This document shows positions 8,516 through 63,721 of a stretch of 64,000 bases of DNA, one piece after another. The notes beneath the pieces are model-generated. The model saw nothing but the letters and a program-made list of their open reading frames with translations, made no database searches and had not been told where the DNA came from. A program made the translations under genes and the position numbers. The DNA is taken from positions 13,314 through 77,313 of the forward strand of contig CAZFJP010000015.1 of assembly GCA_964518965.1 (NCBI GenBank), written 5' to 3'. Each line of letters opens with the position of its first letter. The first letter of the stretch is position 1. This stretch comes from an uncultured Candidatus Saccharibacteria bacterium (lineage in GTDB: Bacteria; Patescibacteriota; SOKK01).

Positions 8516-8527
8516 ACTTCAGCCTTC
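8477..8527. repeat. GC-richer hairpin repeat (family 2, copy A)
   Basis: Perfect 11-bp stem gaaggctgaag / cttcagccttc with an internal gcggaag...cttc, followed by a T-run on the plus strand. It overlaps the last codons of ruvC. A related copy is at 21316-21370. Confidence 0.6.
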
Positions 8528-8998: not shown

Positions 8999-9001
8999 TG
9001 A

Positions 9002-14429: not shown

Positions 14430-15452
14430 TTACTCAATCTCCGCTACCGGATCTGCTTCCAATTTTTGCCAATCAATCATTTTCCCCTTTCTCATTTTGA
14501 AATATCCATTCATTGCCACAATTGCGCCATTATCAGTACAGAATTTGGTTGGGGGAAGATATAATTTCGTCAAAGAAGAAACTCGTTTTTCTAATTCTCT
14601 ACGTAATTCTGAGTTTGCCGCTACTCCTCCGCCTAAGATAAACGATTTGGGATGATATTTTTTAATAGCGCGGATAGATTTTTCTATCAAAACATCAACG
14701 ATTGCCTCTTGAAATGAGGCAGCGAGGTCGTTTTTCGAGAACAACCTCAGTGTTTTACTCACAGAACTGGATTGAAATTTATCTCTGATTAAATAAAGAA
14801 CCGCTGTTTTCAATCCCGCAAAACTAAAATCAAAATTGTCTTGTCCAATCATCGGTCTCGGTAAATCAAATGCTTTGGAATTTCCTTTCTCGGCTGCTTC
14901 ACTAATTGCGGGTCCACCGGGATAACCTAGTTCTAGCAATTTCGCCACTTTATCAAATGCTTCACCGGCAGCATCGTCTAATGTTGCACCTAACAATTGA
15001 TAATCACTATGACTTTTCATCAGAATTAACTCCGTATGTCCGCCACTAACCACTAACCCAATTGCAGGAAATTGCGGGGGTTTCTTGGTTTCAATCCATG
15101 CTGCATAAAGATGAGCTTCCACATGATTAATAGGAATGATTTTTTTATTTAAAGAGTATGCCAGTACTTTCGCAGTACTGACTCCTACTAACAATGAACC
15201 AATCAATCCCGGCCCGGAGGTCACTGCAATTGCATCAATGTCCCCTAATTCAATCTCTGCTTCTTTCAAAGCATGATTTAACAATGGAATCATTTTTTCT
15301 GTATGCGCTCGTGCAGCCACCTCCGGCACTATCCCCCCGAATTCCCTATGAAGATCGGTTTGTGAAGCAACAATATTACTTAAAAGATTACTGTCCTTTA
15401 GAACAGCAACAGCGGTTTCATCACAAGATGTTTCAATGCCTAAAATAATCAT
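14430..15452 (-). CDS. tsaD: tRNA N6-adenosine threonylcarbamoyltransferase TsaD (Kae1/Gcp family)
   Basis: 340 aa. MIILGIETSCDETAVAV N-terminus, HxxAH metal-binding region (HVEAHLYAA), GGVAANSELR. Confidence 0.9.
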   Translation of the reverse strand: MIILGIETSCDETAVAVLKDSNLLSNIVASQTDLHREFGGIVPEVAARAHTEKMIPLLNHALKEAEIELGDIDAIAVTSGPGLIGSLLVGVSTAKVLAYSLNKKIIPINHVEAHLYAAWIETKKPPQFPAIGLVVSGGHTELILMKSHSDYQLLGATLDDAAGEAFDKVAKLLELGYPGGPAISEAAEKGNSKAFDLPRPMIGQDNFDFSFAGLKTAVLYLIRDKFQSSSVSKTLRLFSKNDLAASFQEAIVDVLIEKSIRAIKKYHPKSFILGGGVAANSELRRELEKRVSSLTKLYLPPTKFCTDNGAIVAMNGYFKMRKGKMIDWQKLEADPVAEIE

Positions 15453-15574
15453 GTCAAATATAAAATGTTAAATGGAGAATGTATATTTGGTATTTGACAT
15501 TTTATATTTCACGTCCATATTACCTTAAAATGTCCTTTTCTGCTAAAATAAAGGTAGCTTATTGGAAAAACACT

Positions 15575-21290: not shown

Positions 21291-21315
21291 AGAAAAATAA
21301 AAAAAAAGCAGAATT

Positions 21316-21370
21316 CTGAAGGCTGAAGCTTGAAAACTGCAAACTTCAGTCTTCCGCCTTCAAACTTCAG
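21316..21370. repeat. GC-richer hairpin repeat (family 2, copy B)
   Basis: ctgaaggctgaag...cttcagtcttccgccttcaaacttcag. It shares the gaaggctgaag, cttccgcc (rc of ggcggaag) and cttcaaacttcag blocks with copy A at 8477-8527 in rearranged orientation. Confidence 0.55.
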
Positions 21371-21431
21371 ACTTAATTTTATTATACCACCTAAACCAAA
21401 ATCTACGTATCGCCTTTTAAACTAGTATTAC

Positions 21432-23362: not shown

Positions 23363-23401
23363 GGAATTACTCCTCCTTGTAAAAATAAAAACAATAAAAA
23401 A

Positions 23402-23456
23402 TACTAGTTGTTCCCCCTAGTAGTTTTATTCTACTATAAGCCCCTAAACATGTCAA
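23402..23456 (-). promoter_or_regulatory. hsp20 promoter with downstream inverted repeat
   Basis: On the minus strand: TTGACA (23451-23456), 17 nt, TAGAAT (23428-23433). The 6-bp inverted repeat tactag-N9-ctagta (23402-23422) lies between the -10 and the start codon as a candidate repressor site. Confidence 0.5.
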
Positions 23457-23463
23457 AAGTGTT

Positions 23464-23874
23464 TTACCTTATTTTTAGATTGAGCGCTTTGTTCATTAAC
23501 TGATCGGCTTCTCTATTTCCAGAACGATTGACATGGGTAAACTCCACCCGACCAATTTTTCGAGTCAAAAACAATACTTCTGCAAAAAGTTTTTTCAAGT
23601 TTTGATCCTTAACCCGATAGCTACCTTTTAGTTGACGAACAATTAATTCGCTATCTAAAAAGCATTTTAAGTAATCTGGCTTCATTTGTAACACTTGATT
23701 TAACCCTGCAATTAATCCTTTGTACTCGGCTTGATTGTTTGTCAAATTACCACCAAGATACCTTCCTTCGCGCTTTAAAACATTTCCTTTATCATCTTTA
23801 ATCACAAAACCAAATCCCGCGGGACCAGGATTACCGCGTGCACCACCGTCAGTGTAAAGTTTGAGAATTTTCAT
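23464..23874 (-). CDS. rnhA: ribonuclease H (RNase HI-like)
   Basis: ORF track 23464..23970. Start re-chosen at MKILKLYTDGGARGNPGPAG (23874) because the upstream 32 codons run through repeat element D. DxE...D RNase H motifs are present. Confidence 0.75.
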   Translation of the reverse strand: MKILKLYTDGGARGNPGPAGFGFVIKDDKGNVLKREGRYLGGNLTNNQAEYKGLIAGLNQVLQMKPDYLKCFLDSELIVRQLKGSYRVKDQNLKKLFAEVLFLTRKIGRVEFTHVNRSGNREADQLMNKALNLKIR

Positions 23875-23876
23875 AG

Positions 23877-23947
23877 AAGATATGAGATATGAGATGCTAG
23901 ATACTAAATTTACAGCTAACATCTGCAATCTTACATCTCGCATTATA
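23877..23947. repeat. heptad-iteron palindrome (family 3, copy D)
   Basis: Tandem heptads agatatg agatatg agatgct agatact, a spacer, then inverted taacatctgcaatcttacatctcgcat. Related to copy C. It sits in the divergent region between rnhA and the 24026 gene. Confidence 0.6.
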
Positions 23948-24025
23948 ACACAGGTTATTACCACTATCACTAAAAAAATGTGTTACAATGGTTACAAGTT
24001 ATTTTTTAATCACAAGGAGTGTTTC

Positions 24026-24625
24026 ATGTCCGAAACACCAAAACTGACATCTCCCCAAACACTCAAAGTACTTGCTCAAAAGAGCAATACCACTTTAATC
24101 GCCATCCTCGTAATTATCGGCGTTCTTTTAATCGGCGGCATTGGCAGTTGTTTAGTAATCCGTAGTTGTCCTAACCAAGTAACTACTAAAGGAATAGAAA
24201 ACGCTCTCGAAAAAACAACTAGCACTGATATCAATACTGAAGAAGAAAAAGTTTCCGTGAAAAATGAAAAGAGAAGTTTAGAGATCGACAGTAAAAAATT
24301 ACCGGAAGGGTTCGCCAACCAAATTCCTGTTTACACCAGTACTTCTGTGGAAAGCAGTTCTAAATATGAAGACAATGAAAAAGGAATCACTTATGTTGTC
24401 AAACAAACAACAAACGACAGTTATAATACCGTAAGAGCATTTTTCAAAAGCAATTTACCCTCCCACGGTTGGCCAATCATCAGTGAAGTTGAATCCACTG
24501 CTGGCGGCAACAAAACAATCACTTTTACCTTTAACACTAGCAGGGATCCTGGCGAGGGGTGGATTGTTATTACCCAAGAAGATGACAAAGTAACTATCGG
24601 TTACTCTGTTACCATCAAAAAATAA
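24026..24625 (+). CDS. membrane-anchored hypothetical protein
   Basis: ORF track 23861..24625. Start moved to ATG 24026 (MSETPKLTSP), which has SD aaggag 7 nt upstream. One TM helix (LIAILVIIGVLLIGGIG), then a Ser/Thr-rich extracellular region. Confidence 0.45.
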   Translation: MSETPKLTSPQTLKVLAQKSNTTLIAILVIIGVLLIGGIGSCLVIRSCPNQVTTKGIENALEKTTSTDINTEEEKVSVKNEKRSLEIDSKKLPEGFANQIPVYTSTSVESSSKYEDNEKGITYVVKQTTNDSYNTVRAFFKSNLPSHGWPIISEVESTAGGNKTITFTFNTSRDPGEGWIVITQEDDKVTIGYSVTIKK

Positions 24626-24776
24626 TTTTCAATTAGTTTTAAAACAGACAAGATTAAAATCCGGTCCGTTTTTCTACCTGCCAAAGAAAATTTCTTTTCT
24701 CATCTCATTGACAAAGCTAATCAGCAAGGTAAAGATTTTCTTCCAGCAGACACTTCTGTTCTATACTTAGTTAACT

Positions 24777-24785
24777 TGTGGATAA
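24777..24785. promoter_or_regulatory. perfect DnaA box (TGTGGATAA) upstream of dnaA
   Basis: cttgtggataact. A 2-mismatch box cctatcaaca is at 24829-24838. The region 24630-24960 is AT-rich non-coding. Confidence 0.5.
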
Positions 24786-24959
24786 CTAAAAACAATTTTA
24801 ATAAAACGAGCACTTGAAAATTAGATAACCTATCAACAAGGACTTACGACTTATTCACTTGCTACTAACACCCTCCCTCTGTTAGTATCAAGGTGTAATT
24901 TTCTAAAGAGGGACTACTTTCCAAGAGGAAAGTTTTTATTAACTCTACTTAAACCAAGT

Positions 24960-26336
24960 ATGGTAAAAGATCGTGAAAAATTATGGAAAGCAGTCTTGGG
25001 AGAACTGGAAGTAACTTTAAGCAAAGCTAATTTTACTACTTGGTTCCGTGATACTTTTATCGCCGATAAAACAGATGGCAAACTTACGATCGGGGTACCT
25101 AATGCCTTTACCCGCGAATGGCTAAAAAACAAGTACCACCCACAAATTCTGGAAGCACTGAAAAATATTACCAAGGAAGAAGTGAAAGAAGTTGTCTACG
25201 AAGTGGCAAATCTCAAAACAATAACACCTAAGACTGAGACTGGTACTAAGAAACCATTCACTCTCAAAAAATCAACTACCATTGTAAGAACTCACTTTTC
25301 ATCCTTAGAAGGTTTTAGCCTCAACCCACGTTATACTTTTGAGACATTTGTAGTAGGAAACAACAACCGTCTTGCTCATGCTGCCTGTCTGGCAGTCAGC
25401 AAAACCCCGGGGGAAATTTACAACCCTCTTTTCATTTATGGTGGAGTAGGACTAGGTAAGACTCATTTACTACAGGCAATTGGCAATGAGATTTGCAAAA
25501 AACATCCTCACAAAACGGTCGTTTATACTACCTCCGAAAAATTCACTAATGAGATGATTAATGCGATTCGCGATAAGAATATGAGTAAATTTAAGGATCG
25601 CTATCGCAAAACCGATATTCTCATTATTGATGATATTCAGTTCCTCGCAGGCAAGGAGAGTACTCAAGAGGAATTTTTTCACACTTTCAACACTCTTTAC
25701 GAAGCCAATAAACAAATTGTGGTCTCAAGCGACCGCCCACCTAAAGCTATTCCTACCTTAGAAGATCGCCTTCGCTCTCGCTTTGAAGGTGGTATGATTG
25801 CTGATATCCAATCACCGGATTTTGAAATGAGAATGGCAATTTTGGAAGAAAAGTGTCAGGAAAAACACTTTGATGTACCTCACGAAGTATTAGAATATAT
25901 TGCCAAGAGTATTCAACAAAATATTCGCGAACTGGAGGGTGCTTTAACAAGAGTAATGGCTTATTGCGAGCTTAACAATACCAAACCTACCATTGAATCT
26001 ACCGCAAACATTCTCGGCAATATCTTAACTAACCCCAAACACCGTCATATTACTGCAAAACAGATTTTAAATACTGTGTCTTCATTCTACAATATCAGTA
26101 CTAAGGATTTAATTGGACAATCTCGTAAGAGAGAGTTAGCTTTCCCGAGACAAATCGCAATGTATCTGATGCGTGAAGAAATTCGTATGTCCTATCCACA
26201 AATTGGTAAAGAGTTGGGAAATCGTGATCACACAACAGTGATTCATGCTTGTGTTAAAATTAATCAAGAGATTACTGAGAATGAGAATCTTAACCATGAG
26301 ATTAACTTAATTAAAGAACGATTATATATGCCCTAG
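24960..26336 (+). CDS. dnaA: chromosomal replication initiator protein DnaA
   Basis: 458 aa. AAA+ GGVGLGKTHLLQAIGNE, DDIQFL box VII region, C-terminal DNA-binding helix (RQIAMYLMRE). Confidence 0.95.
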   Translation: MVKDREKLWKAVLGELEVTLSKANFTTWFRDTFIADKTDGKLTIGVPNAFTREWLKNKYHPQILEALKNITKEEVKEVVYEVANLKTITPKTETGTKKPFTLKKSTTIVRTHFSSLEGFSLNPRYTFETFVVGNNNRLAHAACLAVSKTPGEIYNPLFIYGGVGLGKTHLLQAIGNEICKKHPHKTVVYTTSEKFTNEMINAIRDKNMSKFKDRYRKTDILIIDDIQFLAGKESTQEEFFHTFNTLYEANKQIVVSSDRPPKAIPTLEDRLRSRFEGGMIADIQSPDFEMRMAILEEKCQEKHFDVPHEVLEYIAKSIQQNIRELEGALTRVMAYCELNNTKPTIESTANILGNILTNPKHRHITAKQILNTVSSFYNISTKDLIGQSRKRELAFPRQIAMYLMREEIRMSYPQIGKELGNRDHTTVIHACVKINQEITENENLNHEINLIKERLYMP

Positions 26337-26655
26337 CGACAGAACAGCAATTGCTTTTCTGTACAGTTGTGAATAATTAGAACAATAAAGGGGAAAAGTT
26401 GGGAAAAAATAGTTAGTTACCTAAGAATAATAGTTGATAAAACTATTAATTATCAACTCTTGTAAAATTCTTTTCACCACTTTTGATTACTTCTCACTTT
26501 TCATCCCCAACTTAAATCACATACTAAATCACAAACTATCCCCCTACTTTTTCTTGTATCAACAACTAAAATACTACCTATCCCCATTTTTTATTCTTAA
26601 CTATTATCACTATTCACTAATTTAATATATCTAAATCTAACTAGGAGACATTAAT

Positions 26656-27762
26656 ATGAAACTTTCCTGTTTGCAAGAAAACCTAAAAAGAGGATTAAAT
26701 ACTGTAGGAAAAGTAGTTGGTACTCAAGCCGATTTGCCTATTCTTGCTAATATTTTACTCAAAACTGACAATGGTAGGTTAAAGTTATCAACTACTAATC
26801 TAGAAATCGGTGTAAATTTTTGGGTAGGGGCAAAAATTGAAAAAGAAGGAGAAATTACCATTCCTGCTAAAGTCCTTGTTGATTACATCAACTCTCTTTC
26901 TAATAAGAAAGTTAATTTAGTTGTTGAGAAAAATATTTTAAAACTGACTTGCGAAGGGAATAGAGCAAGTATTAATGGCATCTCTGCAGATGAGTTCCCT
27001 CTCATTCCGGAAGTCAAATCGGATATTTCCTTCAAATTAAAAACAGAGATAATTAAGGAGATAATTCCTCAGGTGGTAGTTGCTGCTGCTCTTGATGAAT
27101 CTCGTCCAGTTTTAACTGGTGTTTATCTTAAAGTTTCTGATGATCAGTTAAAATTAGCTGCCACCGATAGTTACCGTTTGGCTGAAAGAACAACTACTCT
27201 AGTTAGTAAAGTGAAAAGTGAAGCAGTTGTGGTAATCCCAGCGTCTACATTAAAAGAATTACATCGGATCGTCTTATCGGATTCTCAAATTCAGGAAGTA
27301 GACTGTTTAATTAATAAAGATCAAATAATGTTTGAGTTTAGTGAAGGTAATCTAGTTTCTCGCTTGATTGAGGGTAAATTTCCTAGCTATGAACAGATTA
27401 TTCCTACTACTAGTAAAACCAGAGCGAAAGTAAAAATCGCTGACTTTCTTAAAGCGATCAAAACCAGTGCTGTTTTTAGTCGTGATACTGCTAATAATAT
27501 TAATTTAACCGTTAAGAAAAACGGCCAAATTGAAATTAGAACCGTCGCAGTACAAGTAGGAGAAAGTAATTCGGTAGTGAAAGCAGAGGTAATGGGTGAG
27601 GGGGGAGAAATTTCCTTCAATGCGAAATATTTACTGGATGGATTAAATAATATTCCTGGCGATGAAGTACTGCTAGAAATCAATGACAAGTTGAATCCAG
27701 GACTTTTGAGACCAGTGGCAGATAAAAAGTACTTCTATATTATTATGCCACTACGTAGCTAG
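26656..27762 (+). CDS. dnaN: DNA polymerase III beta sliding clamp
   Basis: 368 aa. MKLSCLQENL start typical of DnaN, three-domain clamp length, follows dnaA. Confidence 0.9.
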   Translation: MKLSCLQENLKRGLNTVGKVVGTQADLPILANILLKTDNGRLKLSTTNLEIGVNFWVGAKIEKEGEITIPAKVLVDYINSLSNKKVNLVVEKNILKLTCEGNRASINGISADEFPLIPEVKSDISFKLKTEIIKEIIPQVVVAAALDESRPVLTGVYLKVSDDQLKLAATDSYRLAERTTTLVSKVKSEAVVVIPASTLKELHRIVLSDSQIQEVDCLINKDQIMFEFSEGNLVSRLIEGKFPSYEQIIPTTSKTRAKVKIADFLKAIKTSAVFSRDTANNINLTVKKNGQIEIRTVAVQVGESNSVVKAEVMGEGGEISFNAKYLLDGLNNIPGDEVLLEINDKLNPGLLRPVADKKYFYIIMPLRS

Positions 27763-27908
27763 ACAATGAGGTTTGAATTAGAGTAGACGTCTACTGGCAA
27801 TCGAGTTAAACAACAGTCTGTCAACTACTCCCAACTGCGTATTATGCTGTTTGTGTTATTTCTATCAGTGCAATGTTTTAACTTTCAATTGATTTTAGTA
27901 AACTTAGT

Positions 27909-29006
27909 ATGTATCTAACGACTCTCCAACTGAATAATTTTCGCAATTTCAAGGAGGGTCGTTTTAATTTTAAACAAGGTCTAAACTTCATTGTCGCTCC
28001 TAATACTTATGGCAAGACCAATATCTTGGAGGCAATTTATTTTTTGGTAATTTTTCAGTCCTTTCGTAATAACGAGTTGAGATCTTTGATTCGTGAAAAT
28101 TTAGAAATAACTGAGTGGGAAGTGAGGTTTAAAAAAGAAAGCGATGATAAAGATCAAAAACTTTGGGCAGTTTTAGATTTTAGCAATGGCAAAGTAGTTC
28201 ACAAGGCGTTTAAATTAAATGGGGTAAAAAAACAACCCTATCAGATTATGGGGGAATTCCAAGCAGTATTATTTACTCCCCAAGACCTAAATCTTGTTTG
28301 TGATCAACCTAGTTCTCGCCGTCATTTTATTGATACTTTAATTTCACGAATTAACCCTCTTTACTATCGTAATTTACTAAATTATAAACGAGTTGTTCGA
28401 GCGCGTAATCGTTTACTCTATTTAATCCAAATCGGTAAGGCGGAGATGAAAGAACTGGATTTTTGGAATAAGCAATTTTTAAGTTTAGCAGAGTTTTTAG
28501 TTCGAGAGAGAGTTTTAGTGTTAAGAAAGATTAATCAGCAATTAAAAGAAATCTACCCACGGATTACTGATACCAAAGATTTATTGAGGATTGATTACCA
28601 AACTAGCTTCACGTATCAAAATGATCTTAAAAATTCGTTAACTTTAAAACTTAATGAAGTACGGAATGAGGAAATTGATTCCGCACAGACTGTTTTTGGC
28701 CCTCATCGTGATGATTTAGTATTTAAATTGGATGATAAAAAATTGGCGCTTTATGGTTCCCGCGGGGAACAACGCTCTGCAATCCTTTCCTTGAAAATTA
28801 CGGAATTAAATTTAATTAAGAAGAAACTTGGCGAATCACCTGTTCTGCTTTTAGACGATGTCCTGTCGGAACTAGATCACAAGAGACAAACGGCACTCTT
28901 AGGAGTATTGGATAATCTGCAGGTGATTATTACCACTACCGAAACTGGTCATCTCAAACGGTTCAATCATGCCAGTCAGGTGAATTTAATTAAATTAAGA
29001 AAATGA
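27909..29006 (+). CDS. recF: DNA replication and repair protein RecF
   Basis: 365 aa. N-terminal L.L.NFRN motif (LTTLQLNNFRNF), Walker-A-like APNTYGKTN, SMC-like signature and LLLDDVLSELD Walker B. Confidence 0.85.
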   Translation: MYLTTLQLNNFRNFKEGRFNFKQGLNFIVAPNTYGKTNILEAIYFLVIFQSFRNNELRSLIRENLEITEWEVRFKKESDDKDQKLWAVLDFSNGKVVHKAFKLNGVKKQPYQIMGEFQAVLFTPQDLNLVCDQPSSRRHFIDTLISRINPLYYRNLLNYKRVVRARNRLLYLIQIGKAEMKELDFWNKQFLSLAEFLVRERVLVLRKINQQLKEIYPRITDTKDLLRIDYQTSFTYQNDLKNSLTLKLNEVRNEEIDSAQTVFGPHRDDLVFKLDDKKLALYGSRGEQRSAILSLKITELNLIKKKLGESPVLLLDDVLSELDHKRQTALLGVLDNLQVIITTTETGHLKRFNHASQVNLIKLRK

Positions 29007-29299
29007 GCTTTACTCCTATTCGTGATGTTCTTCCTAAAGTATTAAATCAAAAAGGTCTCAAACAGGCAGCCGAGGCTGCTTTGATTTGTGAAAAATGGAA
29101 TAAAGTACTAAAAGAGATCTTCAAAGATAAATTTTGTGATCAGATAAAAGTGATTAGTTTTAAAAACGGGGAATTAAAGGTGGCAGTATTAAATCCCAGT
29201 GTTGGTCAGGAACTCCAATTACATTCCTCTGATCTAATTAAGGATTTAAATAATCTTCTTTCTAGCAACATAGTAAAAAGAGTAAGAATTGTTTTTTGA
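29003..29299 (+). CDS. DUF721-like small protein commonly following recF
   Basis: 98 aa. 4-nt overlap with recF. Size, position and the K.V.F.NG.L.V motif match DUF721. Confidence 0.55.
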   Translation: MSFTPIRDVLPKVLNQKGLKQAAEAALICEKWNKVLKEIFKDKFCDQIKVISFKNGELKVAVLNPSVGQELQLHSSDLIKDLNNLLSSNIVKRVRIVF

Positions 29300-29357
29300 C
29301 TAAGTAAAAAAGATCTGTTAAGGTCTTTCCTTATGATACAATATAAGTGAGGTCATC

Positions 29358-38147: not shown

Positions 38148-41100
38148 ATGCAAGTCCCTCGCATTTTTAAACTGAAACGACTGGGGTTAATCGTTACCCT
38201 AAGTGTTTTAGTGCTCTTTGTATTGCAGGCCTCTTTGTTTCCCCAAATTTTGGCTCTTGCTACTCCCGGTGTCAATCCGGAGGTTATCACTACCGACCCC
38301 GGTAATGGTTCAACCGATGTTGAGCCCGATACTAATATCGCAGTTGTTTTCAATGAACCAATGGATCCTAATTCCTTCAATGATCGTAATGTGATCTTGA
38401 ATGGGAGTGTTAGTGGTGGACCTTTGGGTCGATCTTTGAGTATCAATGGTACTCTTCTCACAATTGATCCTGATAACAACTTTGCTCTAGGTGAAACAGT
38501 TACTGTTTTAATTGTTGGTGGCACAGGTCCCAATGCCGTTCGGGATATTGAGGGGGAACCGATGCTTAATAATTACCAGTTCTCTTTTAGGATTTTGAAT
38601 GATCAAACTCCGCCCAATCCTCCGACTAATTTACAGGCAACTGGTCATGATGGTTATGTTGACTTAACCTGGAATCTTTCTAGTTCCCCAGATGTTGTTG
38701 GTCAAACGATTTATCGCTCCCTTTCAAGCGGAGGTCCCTATACTGCTTTGGAGGGAGTAGGCCGGGATGTTACTACTTATCGTGATTCTGCGGTAACCAA
38801 TGGCACTACCTATTATTATGTGATTACTGCTCGCGATAAAGCAGGTAATGAAAGTGCTTATTCCAATGAAGCAACCGCAACTCCAAGTGTCTCTGATACT
38901 AATCCTCCTTATTGTCGTAACTTAAATCCAGTCCCGGGTGCGCAGAATGTCCCGACAGATACCAATATTTACTTGGAAATTTGGGATGATCAAAGTGGTG
39001 TTGCGCGTCGTTCGATTAATCTGACCGTTGAGGGGCAAGATATTATTGTGAATGGTGCGATTCAACCTGGCTTTAACGTTACTTTGAATTCGATTGGCCC
39101 ATTGCCGAATGGTTTTGCGATTGACTATGATCCATCGGTGAACTTTAATGAGTATCAGAACATTAATGTTGACATAACTGCCTTTGATCGCTCACCACTG
39201 CGGAACCAAATGAGTTATAGTTACGCTTTCCGCATTGCGGATTCAACTCCTCCTTATACTGACAATTACAATCCTGCTCCCGGTCAGGCCGGTGTTCCTG
39301 TCAACAGCAATGTGGTTTTTGAGATTCACGACACCGGAAGTGGTGTGAACCGCAATTCTATTCGCGTTGATGTTGAAGGTACTGTTTATCGTGCAGGGAT
39401 TCCTGGTTTTAGCACGGTAAATTTACCCGATGGCTATCGAGTCACGATTAATCCCGCTTCTAACTTCCCTTATAGTACCCAGATTGATGTTGCTATTGAT
39501 GCACGGGACGATGCTGGTAATGTGATGCCGACTTTTAATTATTTCTTTACAACTGCCTCTGCTGATGATACTGAACCACCTTATGTTACTAACTTAAATC
39601 CGGCTCCGACTCAAACTGGCGTTCCTGTTAATACTAACATTTACTTTGAAATTTTGGACAGCGGCACTGGTGTTGATTTAAACACGGTTGATTTGATTGT
39701 AGAAGGCACTACTATTATTAGTAATGGTGTTGTGCAACCTGGTTACAATGTTACCATCAATGCGATTGCGCAAGGATTTAGTTTTGACTACGATCCTTCC
39801 GCTAACTTTAACGAGTATCAGACTGTTAATGTGACGGTAAGGGCTTCTGACCTTGCTTCTACTCCAAACTTCATGCAGTATGACTACTGGTTTAGAACCG
39901 GAGATTTAACTCCTCCGTATGTGAACGGTCGCGTACCTGCCGATGGAGATATTAATGTTCCCGTTGATACCAATGTCGTGTTCCATGTTTTAGATGATGG
40001 TTCCGGAGTGAATATCTTAACGGTTGTGGCTATCGTTGATGGCACTGTTTATCGCTTTGGTATCCCCGGATTTAGCTTTGCTGGCACACCAGCTGACTAC
40101 ACGATTACTATTGATCCTGCTTCTAATTTCCCTTACAATACCGTTATTCCGGTTGCCATTGACGCGATGGATGTTGAGGGTAACGTAATGGCAACGGATA
40201 ACTATAGCTTTACCACTGAACCGACAGCGGATACTGAACCACCTTACGTTCAGAATCTTAATCCGGCTCCGGGTCAGACCAATGTTCCGGTGAATACTAA
40301 TATTTATCTGGAAGTCGTTGACGATGACAGTGGTGTTGATGTGAATACTATTGACTTCACTGTTGAAGGTAGTTTGATTGTTGACGACGGTGTGGTTCAA
40401 CCGGGCTATACAGTTGCTCTTAATCCAATCGCTAACGGCTATTCATTAGATTATGATCCATCTGTGAACTTTAATGATTACCAGCAAGTGGATGTAACTA
40501 TTAGTGCTTCTGACCTTGCTCCGGTTCCCAACAGTTTCTCTTATAATTATTTCTTCCGCACCAACGATACTAATCCTCCTTATACTAATGGCTACAATCC
40601 TACCCCGGGTGATATTAATGTTCCGGTCAATACTGATGTGGTCTTCCATGTTTTGGATGATGGTTCAGGTGTTAACTTAATGACCGTTGCGGCAAACGTC
40701 AATGGTGTTCTTTATGCCAATGGCATCCCCGGATTCAGTTTTGTGGGTACTCCCGCGGATTACACTATTATCATTAATCCTGCGACTAATTTTCCTTATA
40801 ACACTGTTATCCCGGTCACTCTTTACGCTACCGACTTAGATGGTAATGTAATGACCCCTTTCAGTTATAGCTTTACTACGGAAACCGGCGCTGATTTGCT
40901 TCCTCCTTATGTTCAAAATGAAAATCCGCAGCCGGGTGAAGTAAATGTCCCGCGCAATACGAACATTTACTTTGAAGTTGTTGATGATCAAAGCGGTGTT
41001 AATCTCGGTAGTGTTGATGTTACTGTAGAAGGAAACTTAATTGTTGATGATGGCGTTGCTCAACTTGGCTATGCAGTGACAATTACTCCGATTGCGAATG

Positions 41101-42359
41101 GTTATAGTTTTGACTATGATCCGAGTACGGACTTTGCTTATGGTCAGGTAGTAGATGTTTCCATTGATGCGGCTGACAATGCCACTCCACCGAATGTCAT
41201 GGCAACTTACAACTATAGCTTCACGATCATTAATGTTAACGACACTACTGCTCCAGTTGTTCAAAATGAGAATCCGGCTCCCGGTGCTATCAACGTTCCG
41301 GTGAACACTAATGTTTATTTGGAAATTGTTGATGCTGGCACTGGCGTTGATCTCAATACGGTTAATATTACTGTTGAGGGAGCGACTATTGTTGTAAATG
41401 GTGTTGTCCAGCCGGGCTATACTGTTGCAGTAAATCCAATTGCTAATGGTTACAACTTTGACTATGATCCGACAGTGGATTTCCCGGCCAATGCGACGAT
41501 TAACGTTTCTGTTGATGCGGCGGACCTGATGACTCCGCCTAATGTGATGCCAACCTATAATTATAGCTTTGATACTTTAGATACCATTCCTCCGCAACTT
41601 GCTTTGGTTAATCCGAGCGATCCGGATAATGGCGCCACTAATGTCCCGGTTACTTCCAATATTACTTTCCGCTTTAACGAAGCAATGAACCAAGGTACTT
41701 TAGGTGCTGACACTGTTGTTACAACCGGTAGTGTTTCTGGTACAATTGGCGGTACCTTCACCACTACTGCAACTAGTGTTACTTTCAACCCGACAAACAA
41801 TTTTGTTGCGGGTGAAGTGATTACTGCTACGGTTAACACGAATGCGCAGGATTTAGCGGGCAATGGTTTAGACGGTGATCGCGATGGTGTTGCTGAAGGT
41901 TCTCCGGTAGATGATTACACAATCAGCTTTACCGTTGCTGCGGCAGGGGATACTACTCCGCCCAATGCTCCCGTGGTAATTAGTCCCGCTGATGGTGAAG
42001 TGATTACCGATAATACCCCGATGATTTTTGGTACCGCTGAAGCTGGCAGTGATGTTTCCATCTACGTTGATGATGTAGAAGTCGTTACTACTCGTGCGGA
42101 TAGTAATGGTAACTTTATCTATACGATGACCCAAGAACTTGACCGTGGTGAGCACACTGTTTATGCTTATGCGACTGATGCTGCTGGTAATCGCAGTGCT
42201 CGTTCTAATGTAAACACCTTTATTGTTGATACTGGTTCTATTTTAGGTGCAATAACTGGTGCTACTGGTGGTAACTGGTTGTGGATTTCTTTGATTCTTG
42301 CCTTCCTTGCAGCATTGGGCTTTGTTACTATTAGAGCATTTGCCAAAGTAAGGCAGTAA
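38148..42359 (+). CDS. giant cell-surface protein with about 10 tandem bacterial Ig-like domains, FN3-like region and C-terminal TM anchor
   Basis: 1403 aa. Signal peptide, then a recurring about 105-aa unit (PPY..N.NP.PG...VP.NTNIY.E..D..SGV....I...VEG...) also repeated at the nucleotide level, SbsA/Big_5-like. The C-terminus LWISLILAFLAALGFVTIRAFAKVRQ is a membrane anchor. Confidence 0.75.
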   Translation: MQVPRIFKLKRLGLIVTLSVLVLFVLQASLFPQILALATPGVNPEVITTDPGNGSTDVEPDTNIAVVFNEPMDPNSFNDRNVILNGSVSGGPLGRSLSINGTLLTIDPDNNFALGETVTVLIVGGTGPNAVRDIEGEPMLNNYQFSFRILNDQTPPNPPTNLQATGHDGYVDLTWNLSSSPDVVGQTIYRSLSSGGPYTALEGVGRDVTTYRDSAVTNGTTYYYVITARDKAGNESAYSNEATATPSVSDTNPPYCRNLNPVPGAQNVPTDTNIYLEIWDDQSGVARRSINLTVEGQDIIVNGAIQPGFNVTLNSIGPLPNGFAIDYDPSVNFNEYQNINVDITAFDRSPLRNQMSYSYAFRIADSTPPYTDNYNPAPGQAGVPVNSNVVFEIHDTGSGVNRNSIRVDVEGTVYRAGIPGFSTVNLPDGYRVTINPASNFPYSTQIDVAIDARDDAGNVMPTFNYFFTTASADDTEPPYVTNLNPAPTQTGVPVNTNIYFEILDSGTGVDLNTVDLIVEGTTIISNGVVQPGYNVTINAIAQGFSFDYDPSANFNEYQTVNVTVRASDLASTPNFMQYDYWFRTGDLTPPYVNGRVPADGDINVPVDTNVVFHVLDDGSGVNILTVVAIVDGTVYRFGIPGFSFAGTPADYTITIDPASNFPYNTVIPVAIDAMDVEGNVMATDNYSFTTEPTADTEPPYVQNLNPAPGQTNVPVNTNIYLEVVDDDSGVDVNTIDFTVEGSLIVDDGVVQPGYTVALNPIANGYSLDYDPSVNFNDYQQVDVTISASDLAPVPNSFSYNYFFRTNDTNPPYTNGYNPTPGDINVPVNTDVVFHVLDDGSGVNLMTVAANVNGVLYANGIPGFSFVGTPADYTIIINPATNFPYNTVIPVTLYATDLDGNVMTPFSYSFTTETGADLLPPYVQNENPQPGEVNVPRNTNIYFEVVDDQSGVNLGSVDVTVEGNLIVDDGVAQLGYAVTITPIANGYSFDYDPSTDFAYGQVVDVSIDAADNATPPNVMATYNYSFTIINVNDTTAPVVQNENPAPGAINVPVNTNVYLEIVDAGTGVDLNTVNITVEGATIVVNGVVQPGYTVAVNPIANGYNFDYDPTVDFPANATINVSVDAADLMTPPNVMPTYNYSFDTLDTIPPQLALVNPSDPDNGATNVPVTSNITFRFNEAMNQGTLGADTVVTTGSVSGTIGGTFTTTATSVTFNPTNNFVAGEVITATVNTNAQDLAGNGLDGDRDGVAEGSPVDDYTISFTVAAAGDTTPPNAPVVISPADGEVITDNTPMIFGTAEAGSDVSIYVDDVEVVTTRADSNGNFIYTMTQELDRGEHTVYAYATDAAGNRSARSNVNTFIVDTGSILGAITGATGGNWLWISLILAFLAALGFVTIRAFAKVRQ

Positions 42360-42437: not shown

Positions 42438-42920
42438 TTAATCCATCTTCTCCGGACTGATCATAATTCTTCTTTCCGCACCTTCTCCGATACTTTCTGA
42501 CTTCACGCCATCCTTGCCTTTAATAAAAAGATGAACAATTCTTCGTTCGTACGGTGGCATCGGGCGAAGGATAACTGGCTTTTGGGTACGTGCAACTTGA
42601 CTTACTGCTTCTTCTACGATCTTTTTTAATGCTTCTTCTTGTTTTTCACGATAGTTGCTGACATTAACGACGATGGGAATCAATCTGGTGATTTTTTTCT
42701 TCAAAATTAGGCGGATGATATGCTGGAAAGCAAGAAGTGATTCGCCGTGCCAACCGATGATTAATCCGGAATCTTCTTCTGTTTCAGGAATAATTTTTAA
42801 AAGATAAGGAGCATCTTTTTGTGCTTGGCATTCGGTTTTTACTTTAATGCCAAGTTTATCAAATAAGCTCTCGGTTTCTTTTTTGATGATGGAAATTTCT
42901 TGCTCTTGAGTAGTAGCCAT
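42438..42920 (-). CDS. Jag/KhpB-like RNA-binding protein (KH plus R3H domains)
   Basis: 160 aa. C-terminal R3H-like region ERRIVHLFIKGKDGVKSESIGEGAERRIMI. Conserved position downstream of yidC. Confidence 0.75.
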   Translation of the reverse strand: MATTQEQEISIIKKETESLFDKLGIKVKTECQAQKDAPYLLKIIPETEEDSGLIIGWHGESLLAFQHIIRLILKKKITRLIPIVVNVSNYREKQEEALKKIVEEAVSQVARTQKPVILRPMPPYERRIVHLFIKGKDGVKSESIGEGAERRIMISPEKMD

Positions 42921-43001
42921 TAGTTATTCTCTTTAATCCACCTTCGTTCCGCTTCGCGGGACTTCGGCGGATGTCGCCTTTAGTAAATAATTTAATATAA
43001 G

Positions 43002-43748
43002 TTACTTTTGAGTTCTCGGCTCCAGTTTAGAAATATTAGTTTTTCTCATAATCAGCCACTGTTGGAGAATTGCCATTAGGGTGGTAACAATCCAGTAGAG
43101 AGGAAGACCAGCAGGCAAGGTCATCGCGAAAAACACGGTAATTAAAGGCATAAAGTAGACCATTTGTCCGCCCATAACTTTTTCCATGGGGTTTTGTTTC
43201 TGGTCTTCCGTCTTGGGTTTATTTTTCATTAACATCTTGGTCTGGATGAACTGAAAAACACCGGCGAGAATCGGTAGGACAAAACGGTCAGGTTTAGAAA
43301 GGTTTAGAATTCCTAGAAAGGAAGGGTTAATTGTGCCAGGATTATGAATGAAGGGATAAAGTGTATCCAAATGATTAGAACCCATTGCGTCACGGAGGAC
43401 TTGGTACAAGGCAATTAAAAATGGCAACTGAATTAACATCGGCAGACAACTTCCCAAAGGATTGATTTTATTTTCCTGGTAAAACTTCATTATTTCTTGA
43501 GCTTGTTTTTCTTTGTTATCTTTATGCTTGTTCTGAATTGCTTTCAATTGCGGTTGCAAGTCCTGCATTGCTTTTTGGGATTTAATTGATTTTTGGGAAA
43601 GTGGCCACATAATCATGCGCAGAACAATTGTCAAAATAATGACTGCAATTCCAATGTCATGACCAGGGATAATATTATATAAAAATACCAGAAAATTAAA
43701 AATCGGGCGGTAGAAACCTTCGTTCCAGATGATAGATAAGATTGACAT
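43002..43748 (-). CDS. yidC: membrane protein insertase YidC (short, Gram-positive/CPR type)
   Basis: 248 aa. Five-TM YidC/Oxa1 core with conserved motifs (PLYWIV, GCLPMLIQLP). Confidence 0.85.
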   Translation of the reverse strand: MSILSIIWNEGFYRPIFNFLVFLYNIIPGHDIGIAVIILTIVLRMIMWPLSQKSIKSQKAMQDLQPQLKAIQNKHKDNKEKQAQEIMKFYQENKINPLGSCLPMLIQLPFLIALYQVLRDAMGSNHLDTLYPFIHNPGTINPSFLGILNLSKPDRFVLPILAGVFQFIQTKMLMKNKPKTEDQKQNPMEKVMGGQMVYFMPLITVFFAMTLPAGLPLYWIVTTLMAILQQWLIMRKTNISKLEPRTQK

Positions 43749-43771
43749 GAGGATAGGTTAGAGTAATAAGT

Positions 43772-43922
43772 ATAAAGGCAAAAATCAAAAATCAAAATGC
43801 AAAATTAAATGTAAAATGCAAAATTAAAGCGTTATTCGGTTAAAGAAAGTAAAACCTAAGAACCTATATTTTTACATTTTACCTTTAATTTTGCTTTTTG
43901 CCTTTTGCATTTTGCTTTTATC
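43772..43922. repeat. AT-rich palindromic intergenic element, copy E3
   Basis: The arms aaaggcaaaaatcaaaaatcaaaatgcaaaattaaatgtaaaatg and acattttacctttaattttgctttttgccttttgcattttgctttt are near reverse complements. The core cggttaaagaaagtaaaacctaagaacc is shared with E1. It exactly fills the yidD-yidC gap. Confidence 0.75.
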
Positions 43923-44154
43923 GTAGAGGATCATAACCACCATTGTTAAACGGATTACACCTTAGAATTCTCCAAATGCCCTTAGCTATGCCCTTTAAGG
44001 TACCATATTTCTCAATTGCCCGATAGGTATATTCGGAGCAACTAGGATAAAATCGGCAATAGCCATATTGATGACGATGACTGAAGAAACCATGGTCGGG
44101 GGAGATGGTTTTTTGGTAGAGGCGGATGAGTTTTAGAGGAATAATTCTAAACAT
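43918..44154 (-). CDS. yidD: membrane protein insertion efficiency factor YidD
   Basis: 78 aa. [11 protein letters not shown].....G...G...[13 protein letters not shown] motif set of the YidD/haemolytic-domain family. Confidence 0.85.
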
Positions 44155-44300
44155 GGACTAAAGTTAAAGGGTAAAGGTGAAAGAGCAAAAGTGAGGGCAA
44201 AAGGAAAAAGTTTAGATTGTTTATTTCATAAACTAAATAATCCTTTATTTTTGCTTTTTACTTTACTTTTACCTTTTTTCTTTACCCTTTGTCTTTAACC
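44155..44300. repeat. AT-rich palindromic intergenic element, copy E4
   Basis: The arms agttaaagggtaaaggtgaaagagcaaaagtgagggcaaaaggaaaaag and ttttgctttttactttacttttaccttttttctttaccctttgtctttaacc are imperfect reverse complements. It exactly fills the rnpA-yidD gap. Confidence 0.7.
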
Positions 44301-44645
44301 TCACATTATTCCAGCCCTCCCTGCTACATCTAAAAGATTCTGTTTGATACTGAAGTAGTTTTCATTCACAATTGATGGTTTGGTCATCACAACGACATCG
44401 AAACCGGGTTTAATATGATCTGCTTTTAATTCCAAGCGGATAATTTCTCTTAAACGACGTTTGATTAAATTACGAATGGTTGGTTTAGGAGAAGTTTTAT
44501 TGCTGACGATTATCCCAAAGCGGGAAACTTTGAGATTATTGGGCATTACTTTGAGAACAAGATGTTTACCGCGGGTAAAGTTTCCTTTTTGGTGAACTTT
44601 CTTGAAATCAGTTTCTTTGTGGAGGCGATTTGCTTTGGGAAGCAT
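44301..44645 (-). CDS. rnpA: ribonuclease P protein component
   Basis: 114 aa. Basic protein with the RnpA RNR-like motif region (KANRLHK..DF..V...G......L.....). Located downstream of rpmH as in most bacteria. Confidence 0.85.
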   Translation of the reverse strand: MLPKANRLHKETDFKKVHQKGNFTRGKHLVLKVMPNNLKVSRFGIIVSNKTSPKPTIRNLIKRRLREIIRLELKADHIKPGFDVVVMTKPSIVNENYFSIKQNLLDVAGRAGIM

Positions 44646-44653
44646 GGAAATGT

Positions 44654-44788
44654 TTAAACAACCAGTCGCTTGCGTCCTTTTTGGCGACGCCTTTTTAAAA
44701 CCCGGCGGCCATCTTTGGTACGGTTGCGCTTGCGGAAACCATGAATTTTCTTTCTTCGTCTCTTCTTGGGTTGATATGTACGTTTCAT
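44654..44788 (-). CDS. rpmH: 50S ribosomal protein L34 (not in ORF track, 44 aa)
   Basis: Hand translation of the minus strand gives [44 protein letters not shown], a near-consensus L34. Its stop lies 8 nt before the rnpA start. Confidence 0.85.
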
Positions 44789-44818
44789 AGGGATTTAGCT
44801 AGTTAAAAAGGTAAATAG

Positions 44819-61708: not shown

Positions 61709-62206
61709 TTGAACTTCTCCTTTGAGTATATGCGTAGAGTGAAAAAGAGAAACAAACATAAAACATCTGTCAGAGACAAGTCCACCTTTTGGGCCTTAGA
61801 CTCATCAATCTCTGGCCGAGGTGGGAAAAATGGTCTTGGCTTTTATTTAGCATTAACCTGTTTGGTTTTGGGAATCCTGCTTTCATTAACAGTAGGATTT
61901 TTTGTTGTCTTTAATTATGTTGCTTCTAGCAGTGCAGCGGATTATGTTCCTGGTTCCGGCAATGTCCGCGGGGTTACTTTAACGCAATATATTATTAGTA
62001 TTTATAACTATGCTGCTAGTATTATCGGTTTACTAGCAGTAATTGTGATTATTATCGCTGGTTATCGTTATATGGGAGCAATGGGGAATCCGCAATATAT
62101 TGCGGAAGCGAAGGCGATGGCAATGGGGGCAATTGCGGGATTAGTTTTGGTGATTCTTTCTTATTTAATTTTATCCACGCTTAACCCCGCGACGGTTAAA
62201 TGGTAA
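61709..62206 (+). CDS. VirB2/TrbC-like small pilin paralog 1
   Basis: 165 aa (start uncertain; alternative ATG at 61730). The C-terminus IIGLLAVIVIIIAGYRYMGAMGNPQ...AKAMAMGAIAGLVLVILSYLIL is shared with paralogs 2-6. Confidence 0.5.
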   Translation: MNFSFEYMRRVKKRNKHKTSVRDKSTFWALDSSISGRGGKNGLGFYLALTCLVLGILLSLTVGFFVVFNYVASSSAADYVPGSGNVRGVTLTQYIISIYNYAASIIGLLAVIVIIIAGYRYMGAMGNPQYIAEAKAMAMGAIAGLVLVILSYLILSTLNPATVKW

Positions 62207-62213
62207 AATAACG

Positions 62214-62561
62214 ATGAAGAAACAGAAGTTATTTACGACAATTTTGGCGAGTGTGGTTCTCTTGGTTTTATCAGCACCGACAGTTTTTGCAGCTATTGGT
62301 TTTAATACTAATCCAGCGACGGTAAATATTTATGATTTTCGTAAACTTCTGGTAAATATTATTAACTGGCTACTTGGTTTTGCTGCGGTTGCAGCAACTG
62401 CAATTATCATTGTTGGCGGATACAATTGGCTTGCTTCTGGTGGTAATTCCGAAAGAATTGAGAATGGCAAGAAGATTATTACTGGTGGAATTATTGGTTT
62501 AGTGATGATTATTTTAGCAGCGGTGTTGGTGAATACGATTATTGCAGTTTTAGGGAAATAA
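62214..62561 (+). CDS. VirB2/TrbC-like small pilin paralog 2
   Basis: 115 aa. Signal peptide ...PTVFA, then two hydrophobic helices around IIIVGGYNWLASGGNSERIENGKKIITGGIIGLVMIILAAVLVN. Confidence 0.6.
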   Translation: MKKQKLFTTILASVVLLVLSAPTVFAAIGFNTNPATVNIYDFRKLLVNIINWLLGFAAVAATAIIIVGGYNWLASGGNSERIENGKKIITGGIIGLVMIILAAVLVNTIIAVLGK

Positions 62562-62575
62562 ACGAAAAACGAAAA

Positions 62576-62980
62576 ATGAAAAACGCAAAACAAATCTTAA
62601 AATTATTCTCGATACTGATTTTGGGAATTGTTTTTTCTTTTTCTTTGTTACCAGTTCTCCCAATAGGTCAGCAAGGATTAATTTTGGCCGCTGATAATTC
62701 TAGCACTAAACTTGGTTTTGGTTCTGGTAGTTTACCGAATCAGTCTAAGGTGAGCGACGTTCGCGGGTTGATTTCTATTATTATCAATGCAATGCTAAGC
62801 ACAGTAACCGCAGTCGCAGTAATTTTTATCATCATTGGTGGTTATCAATACATTGGTTCGGGTGCCAGTGAGGATATGAAAGCGAAAGCGAAAAAGACCT
62901 TAACTTGGGCAATTTCTGGCTTAATTGTCATTATTCTCGCGGCCGTGTTGGTGAATACTTTAATTGGGGTATTTAAATAA
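62576..62980 (+). CDS. VirB2/TrbC-like small pilin paralog 3
   Basis: 134 aa. Signal peptide, IFIIIGGYQYIGSGASEDMKAKAKKTLTWAISGLIVIILAAVLVN. Confidence 0.6.
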   Translation: MKNAKQILKLFSILILGIVFSFSLLPVLPIGQQGLILAADNSSTKLGFGSGSLPNQSKVSDVRGLISIIINAMLSTVTAVAVIFIIIGGYQYIGSGASEDMKAKAKKTLTWAISGLIVIILAAVLVNTLIGVFK

Positions 62981-62996
62981 AGGATATCGTAAGTAA

Positions 62997-63362
62997 ATGA
63001 GAAAAATCGCGAAAATTTTAATTTGCCTAGTTACTTTTACTACGATTTTTATCGCTGGTAATAGTTTGGCGGTTGATCCAGTTACCCAAGGCGATGTCGG
63101 AAGTAATATTCCTACTGCCTCTAATCCTTCTGCTCCCTTCTCTGACCAATTAGCAATGGTTTTGAATATTCTCTTAGCATTGGCATCTACTGTTGCAGTA
63201 TTATTTATTATTATCGGCGGTTATACTTACATTACTTCTGCCGGTAATCAAGATCGCCAAAAGAAAGCGAAGGAAGTGTTGATTGGAGCAATTGTTGGGC
63301 TGGTGATTATTATTCTTTCCTTCGGTGTCGTTAACTTTATTAATGAGTTTTTAGCAAGATAA
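62997..63362 (+). CDS. VirB2/TrbC-like small pilin paralog 4
   Basis: 121 aa. Signal peptide ...GNSLA, LFIIIGGYTYITSAGNQDRQKKAKEVLIGAIVGLVIIILSF. Confidence 0.6.
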   Translation: MRKIAKILICLVTFTTIFIAGNSLAVDPVTQGDVGSNIPTASNPSAPFSDQLAMVLNILLALASTVAVLFIIIGGYTYITSAGNQDRQKKAKEVLIGAIVGLVIIILSFGVVNFINEFLAR

Positions 63363-63721
63363 TGAGAAATTTTTTCTTAAAAGTTATTTTGGTTCTAGAA
63401 TTAATGTTGGGAATTTCCTCGCCTGCTTTTGCAGCATTAAAAACTCCCAGAGCAGTGGAAAGTGCTTTAAGTGTCTTGCCGAGTATGTTTGATCCGGAAG
63501 TAACAATTGCTGATATTGCCAACTGGCTTTTAGGACTTGCAGCTACTGTTGCAGTGCTTTTGATTATTATTTCTGGCATCCGCTATATCGTTTCCTCGGG
63601 AGAACAGGAGCAGATTCAAAATGCGAAAATCACTCTACGTTATGCGATCATTGGTTTGGTAGTTACGATTTTGGCAATTGTGGTGGTTAATATTGTGCGT
63701 AATATCCTCGGTGCTGATTAA
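63362..63721 (+). CDS. VirB2/TrbC-like small pilin paralog 5
   Basis: 119 aa. Start overlaps the previous stop. Signal peptide ...SSPAFA, LLIIISGIRYIVSSGEQEQIQNAKITLRYAIIGLVVTILAIVVVN. Confidence 0.6.
   Translation: MRNFFLKVILVLELMLGISSPAFAALKTPRAVESALSVLPSMFDPEVTIADIANWLLGLAATVAVLLIIISGIRYIVSSGEQEQIQNAKITLRYAIIGLVVTILAIVVVNIVRNILGAD

Follow-up and report, generated by a model that had tools for sequence, protein, structure and literature searches.

A dispersed family of palindromic repeats with heptamer arms in a Patescibacteria genome segment

Introduction

Repetitive sequences of the short, tandemly repeated kind (STRR sequences), as originally defined, belong to heterocystous and filamentous cyanobacteria, where they number about 100 copies per genome and form hairpins upstream of hoxW, among other places. 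They are 7-bp tandem repeats capable of forming hairpins within operons, as between hupS and hupL, and their function is unknown, with transcript stability or translational coupling having been suggested (PMC2670836). Here we describe comparable elements in a 64,000-nucleotide stretch from an uncultured Candidatus Saccharibacteria bacterium (GCA_964518965.1, contig CAZFJP010000015.1, forward-strand positions 13,314 to 77,313), hereafter the window, in whose own coordinates positions are given. They comprise a family of AT-rich palindromes, the c family, with four copies in the window (c1 to c4), and further hairpins with the same architecture. The elements are like STRR sequences in their 7-nt unit, their intergenic location inside transcription units, the formation of hairpins by inverted arrays and the use of genome-specific heptamers. 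They differ in their Patescibacteria host (Candidate Phyla Radiation, CPR), their AT-rich units, a unique 45-55 nt core found at at least six junctions in both orientations, and hairpins that span the stop-to-start gap almost exactly where default gaps are 2-9 nt.

Direct repeats of the heptamer TAACTGA are known from marine Beggiatoaceae, some cyanobacteria and Bacteroidetes, in arrays immediately upstream of start codons, including those of ribosomal-protein operons (MacGregor, 2015; PMC4679880). Shine-Dalgarno sequences are rare in these gaps, and a translational role was proposed (PMC4679880). Those arrays are direct and unstructured and repeat one heptamer, with one inverted case, whereas the elements described here are inverted pairs with stems of 20-58 bp and use many heptamers.

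ERIC/IRU, REP/BIME, Correia (NEMIS) and RUP sequences are intergenic imperfect palindromes of about 100-150 bp that are multi-copy, lie in either orientation, are co-transcribed and are patchily distributed among relatives. PMC4853749 discusses Correia-like miniature inverted-repeat transposable elements (MITEs). Like ERIC, Correia or MITE-like sequences, the c family is palindromic, of similar size, indifferent to orientation and located in operons. It differs in that its arms are tandem heptamers, that there is no duplication of TA or of another target, that neither a GTAG motif nor a gene for a REP-associated tyrosine transposase (RAYT) was seen, and that its sequence is unrelated. Foldback (FB) elements of Drosophila and plants have long inverted arms of short tandem subrepeats, a variable centre and variable arm length, and are often non-coding. 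They are eukaryotic, of kilobase scale and flanked by target-site duplications, and the likeness is architectural only, with no sign of shared ancestry. Rickettsia palindromic elements insert in-frame inside genes; here too a palindrome is translated in a host protein, one arm of c1 forming the tail of RuvB, but as a C-terminal extension only, and the other copies are intergenic.

The genomes of Patescibacteria are very small and densely packed, and few repeats and little mobile DNA are expected in them. A search of the available literature returned no paper on such elements in Patescibacteria, which is weak evidence of absence; on that weak evidence, STRR-like heptamer hairpins and a dispersed palindromic repeat family are described here in a phylum with no earlier report of either.

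Results

The c family of dispersed palindromes

Six copies of the c family lie within about 69 kb of the source genome, four in the window and two just outside it on contigs of the same strain (L numbers designate contigs and loci used for comparison):

c1, 58-190, plus strand: between ruvB and a DAGK-type lipid kinase gene; core in the plus orientation; arms 58-98 and 146-186.
c2, 6795-6942, minus strand: between a 7TM_transglut gene (stop 6953) and an ATP-grasp gene (ATG 6772); its core faces the opposite way to those of c1 and c3; the weakest hairpin.
c3, 43772-43921, plus strand: between yidD and yidC; 58-nt arms, 83% complementary.
c4, 44155-44300, minus strand: in the gap from the rnpA stop (44301-44303) to the yidD ATG (44152-44154); diverged, with GGTAAAG-type units.
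c5, L093:21004-21125: between a VanZ-like gene and thrS.
c6, L102:3483-3612: between two pilin paralogs.

The copies c1 to c4 do belong to a single family of dispersed repeats, lying in both orientations and forming mosaics of one another. Whole-element Smith-Waterman scores in the best orientation were 8-31 standard deviations above those of dinucleotide shuffles, and comparison of the cores only (48-55 nt, arms removed) gave z scores of 5-23 for most pairs. Common to all four are A-rich and T-rich inverted arms and an asymmetric, non-repetitive core of 45-55 nt that reads …AAAGnnTTATTyrGyTaAaGAAA… when the copies are aligned in the same orientation. The core points one way in c1 and c3 and the opposite way in c2 and c4, and c2 aligns with c3 in reverse complement with a score of 141. 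A degenerate 29-nt core pattern, AAAAWTRAAGN{2,3}TTATTYRGYTWAWRAAA, matched exactly c1 to c4 in the window and found no match in 100 shuffles. A reading of the window from its sequence only had proposed four AT-rich palindromes at these places; all four were recovered, with their limits refined to those listed, and the alignment, core-only and pattern controls place their resemblance beyond A/T composition. The core string that this reading had found in two cores is exactly shared over 14 nt (TAAAGAAAGTAAAA) rather than 15. The heptamer make-up of the arms, the inversion of c2 and c4 relative to c1 and c3, and the clade-wide occurrence of several hairpin families in start-proximal gaps go beyond it.

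Members of the family are 130-150 bp long and have inverted arms of 25-58 nt that are 73-83% complementary and no open reading frame (ORF) of their own. The consensus heptamer of the arms is approximately GCAAAAT, and GGTAAAG in the subfamily of c4 and c6, the latter being the closest relative of c4. The ruvB-proximal arm of c1 encodes the last approximately 12 codons of RuvB and its stop (151-153), as had been proposed, but c1 also fills the entire gap to the kinase gene, its stem ending directly at the kinase ATG (58-60).

Scanning JGI metagenome contigs with the core pattern yielded nine loci, one of them a true relative (L086) and eight chance matches without arms. The L086 copy lies at the same 3' junction of ruvB, the contig ending inside the element, and is itself a mosaic whose ruvB-proximal arm matches c1 (32/36) and whose core matches c5 (65/73) versus 48/68 for c1. 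The RuvB tail derived from the element arm, …EHLQRQKAKIKKQN in the window, is kept as …EHLQMQKSKIKMQK in L086. A conserved core and further family members (c5, c6 and L086) exist. Searched with nhmmer, another 1.5 Mb of loci gave no additional match to a c-family profile.

Short-read contigs stop inside c-family copies in two cases, L086 at its 3' end and L095 with its 3' end at window position 6896, which is consistent with repeats breaking the assemblies of these genomes. At least nine tandem T4SS-pilin (PF18895) paralogs are found at window positions 61709-63721 and at L102:2709-4492, and c6 and copies of a CTGAAGG-family hairpin lie between some of them.

Heptamer arms and other hairpins of the window

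The arms are arrays of tandem heptamers, with an autocorrelation peak at lag 7 in every element (z 4.2-7.8) and a secondary peak at lag 14. A scan for lag-7 periodicity combined with folding detected 11 heptamer-arm hairpins in the window, all intergenic and dispersed. Besides c1 to c4 these are seven hairpins built of other 7-mers:

h5, 8998-9082: GATGTTA units; exactly fills the gap between a TPR gene and ruvC; folding energy (dG) -35.1 kcal/mol, z -8.2.
h6, 8477-8527: CTGAAGG units; between ruvC and the 7TM gene; homologous to h8 and L102:4003-4095.
h7, 15444-15521: AAATGTT-type units; spans the starts of two divergent genes, tsaD and one that is FemAB-like.
h8, 21315-21371: CTGAAGG units; in the divergent gap upstream of uvrB.
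h9, 23879-23944: GAGATAT/AACATCT units; close upstream of where RNase H probably starts.
h10, 49125-49205: AATGTAG-type units; ends 2 nt before the start (49208) of an exonuclease-helicase gene.
h11, 53352-53412: GATAGCA/GATAATA units; between a 129-aa ORF and a GT4 glycosyltransferase gene on the plus strand.

The four copies counted earlier were thus real but not the whole, with two more just outside the window and seven hairpins of the same architecture inside it. An irregular order of units is common to h6, h8 and L102:4003-4095; these are homologous, and the c family is therefore not the sole dispersed family. This Patescibacteria lineage has several families of heptamer-arm hairpins, of which the c family is one. 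A start codon adjoins all 11 hairpins of the window, which occupy co-directional junctions or divergent gaps and never (0/11) a convergent gap, and about one third of all window gaps of at least 60 nt hold such a hairpin.

The density of lag-7 hairpins was compared among three sets of loci:

This clade: 16 in 135 kb.
Other Patescibacteria loci: 4 in 546 kb.
Non-CPR loci: 1 in 793 kb.

The hairpins are about 16-fold denser in the clade than in the other Patescibacteria loci, and scans at lags of 5, 6, 8 and 9 found essentially none in the clade. One heptamer tends to dominate in each genome: a CAAAAAT type in the window and a TAAATGT type in GCA_042568785.1, which has hairpins of that type at four junctions.

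Heptamer-arm hairpins elsewhere in Patescibacteria were seen at L007:1180-1260, L035:2470-2540 and L035:6650-6720 (an Uhrbacteria metagenome-assembled genome [MAG]; bin H51-bin166), with AATTCGA, GTTTTAG/CACCTAA and GGATTAA units. The architecture is therefore not confined to the clade of the window.

Host genome and the same junctions in relatives

The window, with a GC content of about 38%, is a segment of a Patescibacteria genome. Its YidC is at most 51% identical to that of any species-representative genome, the best matches all being Parcubacteria, Uhrbacteria or Magasanikbacteria-type MAGs, and five public samples hold contigs 100% identical to parts of the window. The strain is present in JGI samples 3300022548, 3300010284 and 3300025794, in SRR10519663 and in ERZ27245602. 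Pfam confirmed the identities of rnpA, yidD, yidC, ruvB, the 7TM_transglut gene and the ATP-grasp gene; the start of the 7TM gene is 8446, not 8515. Two of the copies share one operon:

rpmH-rnpA-(c4)-yidD-(c3)-yidC-jag, 42438-44818, minus strand: host operon of c3 and c4.

Five junctions were compared with those of a sister genome (GCA_040961665.1; RuvB 88.6% and YidC 89% identical at the amino acid level), in which four of them have gaps of just 2-9 nt:

rnpA/yidD: 2 nt.
TPR gene/ruvC: 2 nt.
7TM gene/ATP-grasp gene: 9 nt.
ruvB/kinase gene: 7 nt.

These gaps imply that the elements are dispensable. At yidD/yidC the sister has, exactly where the window has c3, a gene for 214 amino acids (L081:4212-4856) without a Pfam match, which was either lost in the window lineage or gained in the sister. 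Gene order is kept in relatives at every other junction, which contradicts the earlier suggestion that the elements mark recently rearranged junctions.

At the ruvC/7TM junction, the hairpins of L098 and L099 can be aligned through the flanks on either side, and a 38-nt block of GAATTAT units separates a short form, AGAATTTATAATTTATAATTCATTTCT, from the full-length (GAATTAT)n hairpin of L099, which is direct evidence of in-place expansion or contraction. The elements change by gain or loss of 7-nt units. In more distant relatives, retrieved by synteny with element-bearing regions and with neighbouring proteins 47-77% identical, the same junctions hold hairpins with unrelated heptamers:

yidD/yidC: L082, L083 and L104.
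ruvB/kinase gene: L100 and L101.
ruvC/7TM gene: L099 and L100.
7TM gene/ATP-grasp gene: L100.
129-aa ORF/GT4 gene: L105, a TTAAATG-type hairpin at the junction orthologous to that of h11.

Folding and stem geometry

Folded as RNA of the sense (minus) strand, c3 (-47.8 kcal/mol, z -8.1), c4 (-37.7, z -5.1) and c1 (-31.1, z -4.2) lie far below shuffled sequences. The exception is c2, which has a long loop and folds no better than shuffles (-20.8 kcal/mol, z -1.1). A consensus structure by RNAalifold failed (17 pairs, -4 kcal/mol) because unit indels shift the register, and a cross-complementarity matrix of the arms showed no copy-specific co-evolution except in c4. Sense and antisense fold energies are about equal across the hairpins, and this lack of a sense-strand advantage argues against an RNA under strand-specific selection, such as one shaped by tolerance of G-U pairs, and fits a tolerated DNA palindrome, while leaving room for a selected function.

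Distances from stem to codon were measured on stop-to-start segments. Of 17 co-directional junctions, 12 have a stem whose foot is only a few nucleotides away from the stop codon and from the start codon alike. In c4 the stem begins right after the rnpA stop and ends right before the yidD ATG. In c3 the yidD TAA stop (43918-43920) falls within the first bases of the stem, and the yidC ATG (43748) is 23 nt past it. Between stem and ATG there are 0 nt in c1 and in c4 and 1 nt in h5, and the downstream genes have no room outside the stem for a Shine-Dalgarno sequence.

Comparison with known classes of element

Scans with promoter and terminator consensus sequences revealed no enrichment in the elements. 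Intrinsic (Rho-independent) terminators were rejected since the terminator scan found no GC-rich stem with a T-run in the elements; terminators of this ordinary type stand at convergent gaps and operon ends of the window. Rfam gave no match at gathering thresholds in the whole window, and with E-value thresholds the region 43700-44350 matched only plant miRNA-precursor hairpins below threshold (15-27 bits versus thresholds of 64-211). No tRNA or tmRNA gene was found in the window.

REP sequences and REPINs are imperfect palindromes of 20-40 nt with a 5' GTAG-type motif and an associated RAYT (Y1 transposase) gene; they were rejected because the elements are 130-150 nt long and have no GTAG motif, and the window encodes no Y1_Tnp-type protein. 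TIGR arrays, which are common in CPR bacteria, have units of about 36 nt with two alternating repeats of 8-12 nt, 9-nt spacers and a Nop-domain Tas gene. The elements have a period of 7 nt and a single palindrome each, the window has no Nop-domain protein, and this class was rejected as well. An attC-like recombination site was rejected since GTT/AAC motifs occur in c4 only and in the wrong order. A phage or plasmid origin was rejected after blastn of c3 on phage records and the core pattern on viral contigs gave no match.

Other features of the window

The neighbourhood of the replication origin is at 23400-29300, with RNase H, dnaA (24960-26336), dnaN, recF and DciA-family genes; cumulative GC skew is lowest at about 24-28 kb, gene orientation switches in the origin region, and h9 is at its edge. 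An ORF of 1403 amino acids (38148-42359) occupies the part of the window with the highest GC content (0.41-0.44), and its ortholog in L082 has Big_5, Big_6 and Big_13 domains, so that it looks like a large surface protein.

Two intergenic regions are candidates for structured RNAs. About 850 nt at 51930-52815, 3' of the exonuclease-helicase gene, have no ORF and fold strongly. A promoter-like TTGACA-N17-TAAGAT is found at 51931-51959 and a terminator-like hairpin with a T-run at 52787-52812, and Rfam gave no match even at E≤0.1. One stretch of 235 nt (52221-52437) shares 72% identity with the gap at the syntenic place in L105, where the neighbouring protein is just 47% identical. This region is a candidate conserved large non-coding RNA. 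The second, at 54676-54880 and 3' of the terminator of the GT4 gene, is a GC-rich island (up to 0.63 in a genome of 0.38) with 6-7 successive hairpins; the fold of 54551-54901 has a dG of -150.8 kcal/mol (z -8.3), Rfam had no match, and a stretch of 88 nt is conserved with L105:10549-10636. It is a candidate small structured RNA.

Discussion

We favour, with a probability of about 0.5, the reading that the elements are a dispersed, non-coding, foldback-type repeat family that spreads by copying, slips by units and survives near start codons, where its stem preserves translational coupling. The core at six junctions, its occurrence in both orientations, the mosaics, the genome-specific families and the dispensability in the sister point to dispersed repeats and not to independent local expansions, and the heptamer periodicity and the comparison of L098 with L099 point to slipped-strand and recombinational dynamics. 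Copies would spread between junctions either by transposition with an enzyme encoded elsewhere or by recombination or gene conversion via the palindromic arms, and recombination via the arms would also flip the core. Since the arms are long, repetitive and palindromic, exchange between copies could produce core transfer, core inversion and heptamer homogenisation without a dedicated enzyme. The elements would grow and shrink by slipped-strand mispairing and would survive only in start-codon-proximal gaps because insertion elsewhere in a compact genome destroys a gene and would be lethal. Exact gap filling would follow from ancestral gaps of 2-9 nt, in which the insert becomes the whole gap.

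The short gaps of the sister imply termination-reinitiation as the mode of translation of these gene pairs. The elements would be co-transcribed, and the long AU-rich stem would fold and bring the stop and start codons that abut its ends together again. A ribosome at the stop codon would melt the lower stem and so free the start codon, which would be only a few nucleotides away in the folded RNA. The palindrome may then be the one kind of 80-180 nt insertion that leaves termination-reinitiation coupling largely intact, and an effect on mRNA processing or stability, if any, would be secondary. The roles as RNase III sites, transcript stabilisers or attenuators that the sequence-only reading had raised are conjectural.

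Several observations weigh against this account. RuvB distances (84-85% versus 88.6%) place L086 outside the pair formed by the window and its sister, yet it has the element at the ruvB junction with the same coding junction. The insertion is therefore old, and loss or collapse is more likely than a primitive empty site as the source of the sister's short gap; moreover, the short gaps of the sister contain mini-palindromes (AATAATTATT; AGAATTTATAATTTATAATTCATTTCT) that could be remnants. Hairpins with unrelated heptamers recur at yidD/yidC, ruvB/kinase and ruvC/7TM in four lineages each and at the 129-aa ORF/GT4 junction in two, which might just as well reflect selection for a hairpin at these sites. 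In five samples, contigs of the same strain match the window with 100% identity and show no rapid variation in length. Neither a target-site duplication nor a conserved motif in the flanks was found at c1 to c6 when flanks were read and, for c1 to c4, sister junctions were compared, and the 64-kb window has no transposase, RAYT, integrase or reverse transcriptase, its only RVT_3 match being the RNase H gene. Lastly, the translational coupling across the stem is something that we purely infer.

The recurrence of hairpins is the main argument that they are selected, cis-acting RNAs that serve RNase III processing, protection from exonucleases or the setting of translation ratios, in which the heptamer turns over while the stem is kept. 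The same junctions carry unrelated heptamers in several lineages with flanking proteins 47-85% identical, the structure being kept and the sequence not. Start codons adjoin all of the hairpins, and convergent gaps have none. Transcript stabilisation or translation coupling has also been proposed for the cyanobacterial hairpins of 7-bp repeats between hupS and hupL (PMC2670836). Against such a role, the sister manages without hairpins at four of five junctions, the antisense strand folds equally well, the conserved core lies in both orientations relative to transcription, and c2 folds no better than shuffles; the apparent recurrence is also inflated because the loci were chosen by synteny with element-bearing regions. 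We consider this explanation unlikely, though one to be taken seriously. Growth from within a gap, by slippage of heptamers beside a start codon followed by fold-back (template-switch) duplication and without any movement, would predict the exact filling of gaps and fits both the expansion or contraction seen between L098 and L099 and the many hairpins that have no conserved loop; among long repeat units in prokaryotes, besides, heptamers are the most common (cited in PMC4679880). Purely local expansion is nevertheless improbable, given a non-repetitive core of 45-55 nt at six unrelated junctions and the irregular unit order common to three CTGAAGG hairpins, and for the c family it is already contradicted. 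With cores and unit order shared in this way an independent origin is not credible, and at least the cores were copied between loci.

A third rival is an origin as classical MITEs, deletion derivatives of insertion sequences that are mobilised in trans by a transposase through their terminal inverted repeats; the sequence-only reading had likened the palindromes to a MITE- or REP-like family. That description holds as far as they are multi-copy, lineage-restricted, intra-operon, co-oriented with transcription units, present in both orientations and absent from the junctions of the sister; like MITEs, they are short (130-150 bp), non-coding and inverted at their ends, assemblies break inside their copies (L086 and L095), and they are present or absent at orthologous sites, by gain or by loss, c1 probably having been lost in the sister. 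It fails in that c1 to c4 have no target-site duplication and the 64 kb encode no transposase or RAYT. The only candidate duplication is a direct 6-bp AATGAT flanking h5, and removal of h5 with one AATGAT would restore an ATGA stop/start overlap of the TPR gene and ruvC. The termini of the c family are not conserved between copies despite the inverted arms, inversion and internal repetition extend over the entire arm and not the tip alone, related hairpins do not share any ends, and viral contigs and phage records hold no match. We therefore give an origin as classical MITEs very little credence. A bolder form of the foldback reading is doubtful: that the clade possesses a new type of prokaryotic foldback element generated and moved by a dedicated mechanism, at which ribosomes stop at the 5' foot and reinitiate at the 3' foot in an analogue of shunting, with the heptamer homogenised genome-wide.

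The sister, which shows the same junctions without the elements, provides a natural experiment on the invasion of a streamlined genome by structural or selfish DNA and on how operons tolerate insertions of 80-180 nt between translationally coupled genes. The elements break short-read assemblies and so matter for the quality of MAGs. They also bear on why bacterial repeats favour 7-nt units, a question that has been open since the STRR sequences of cyanobacteria.

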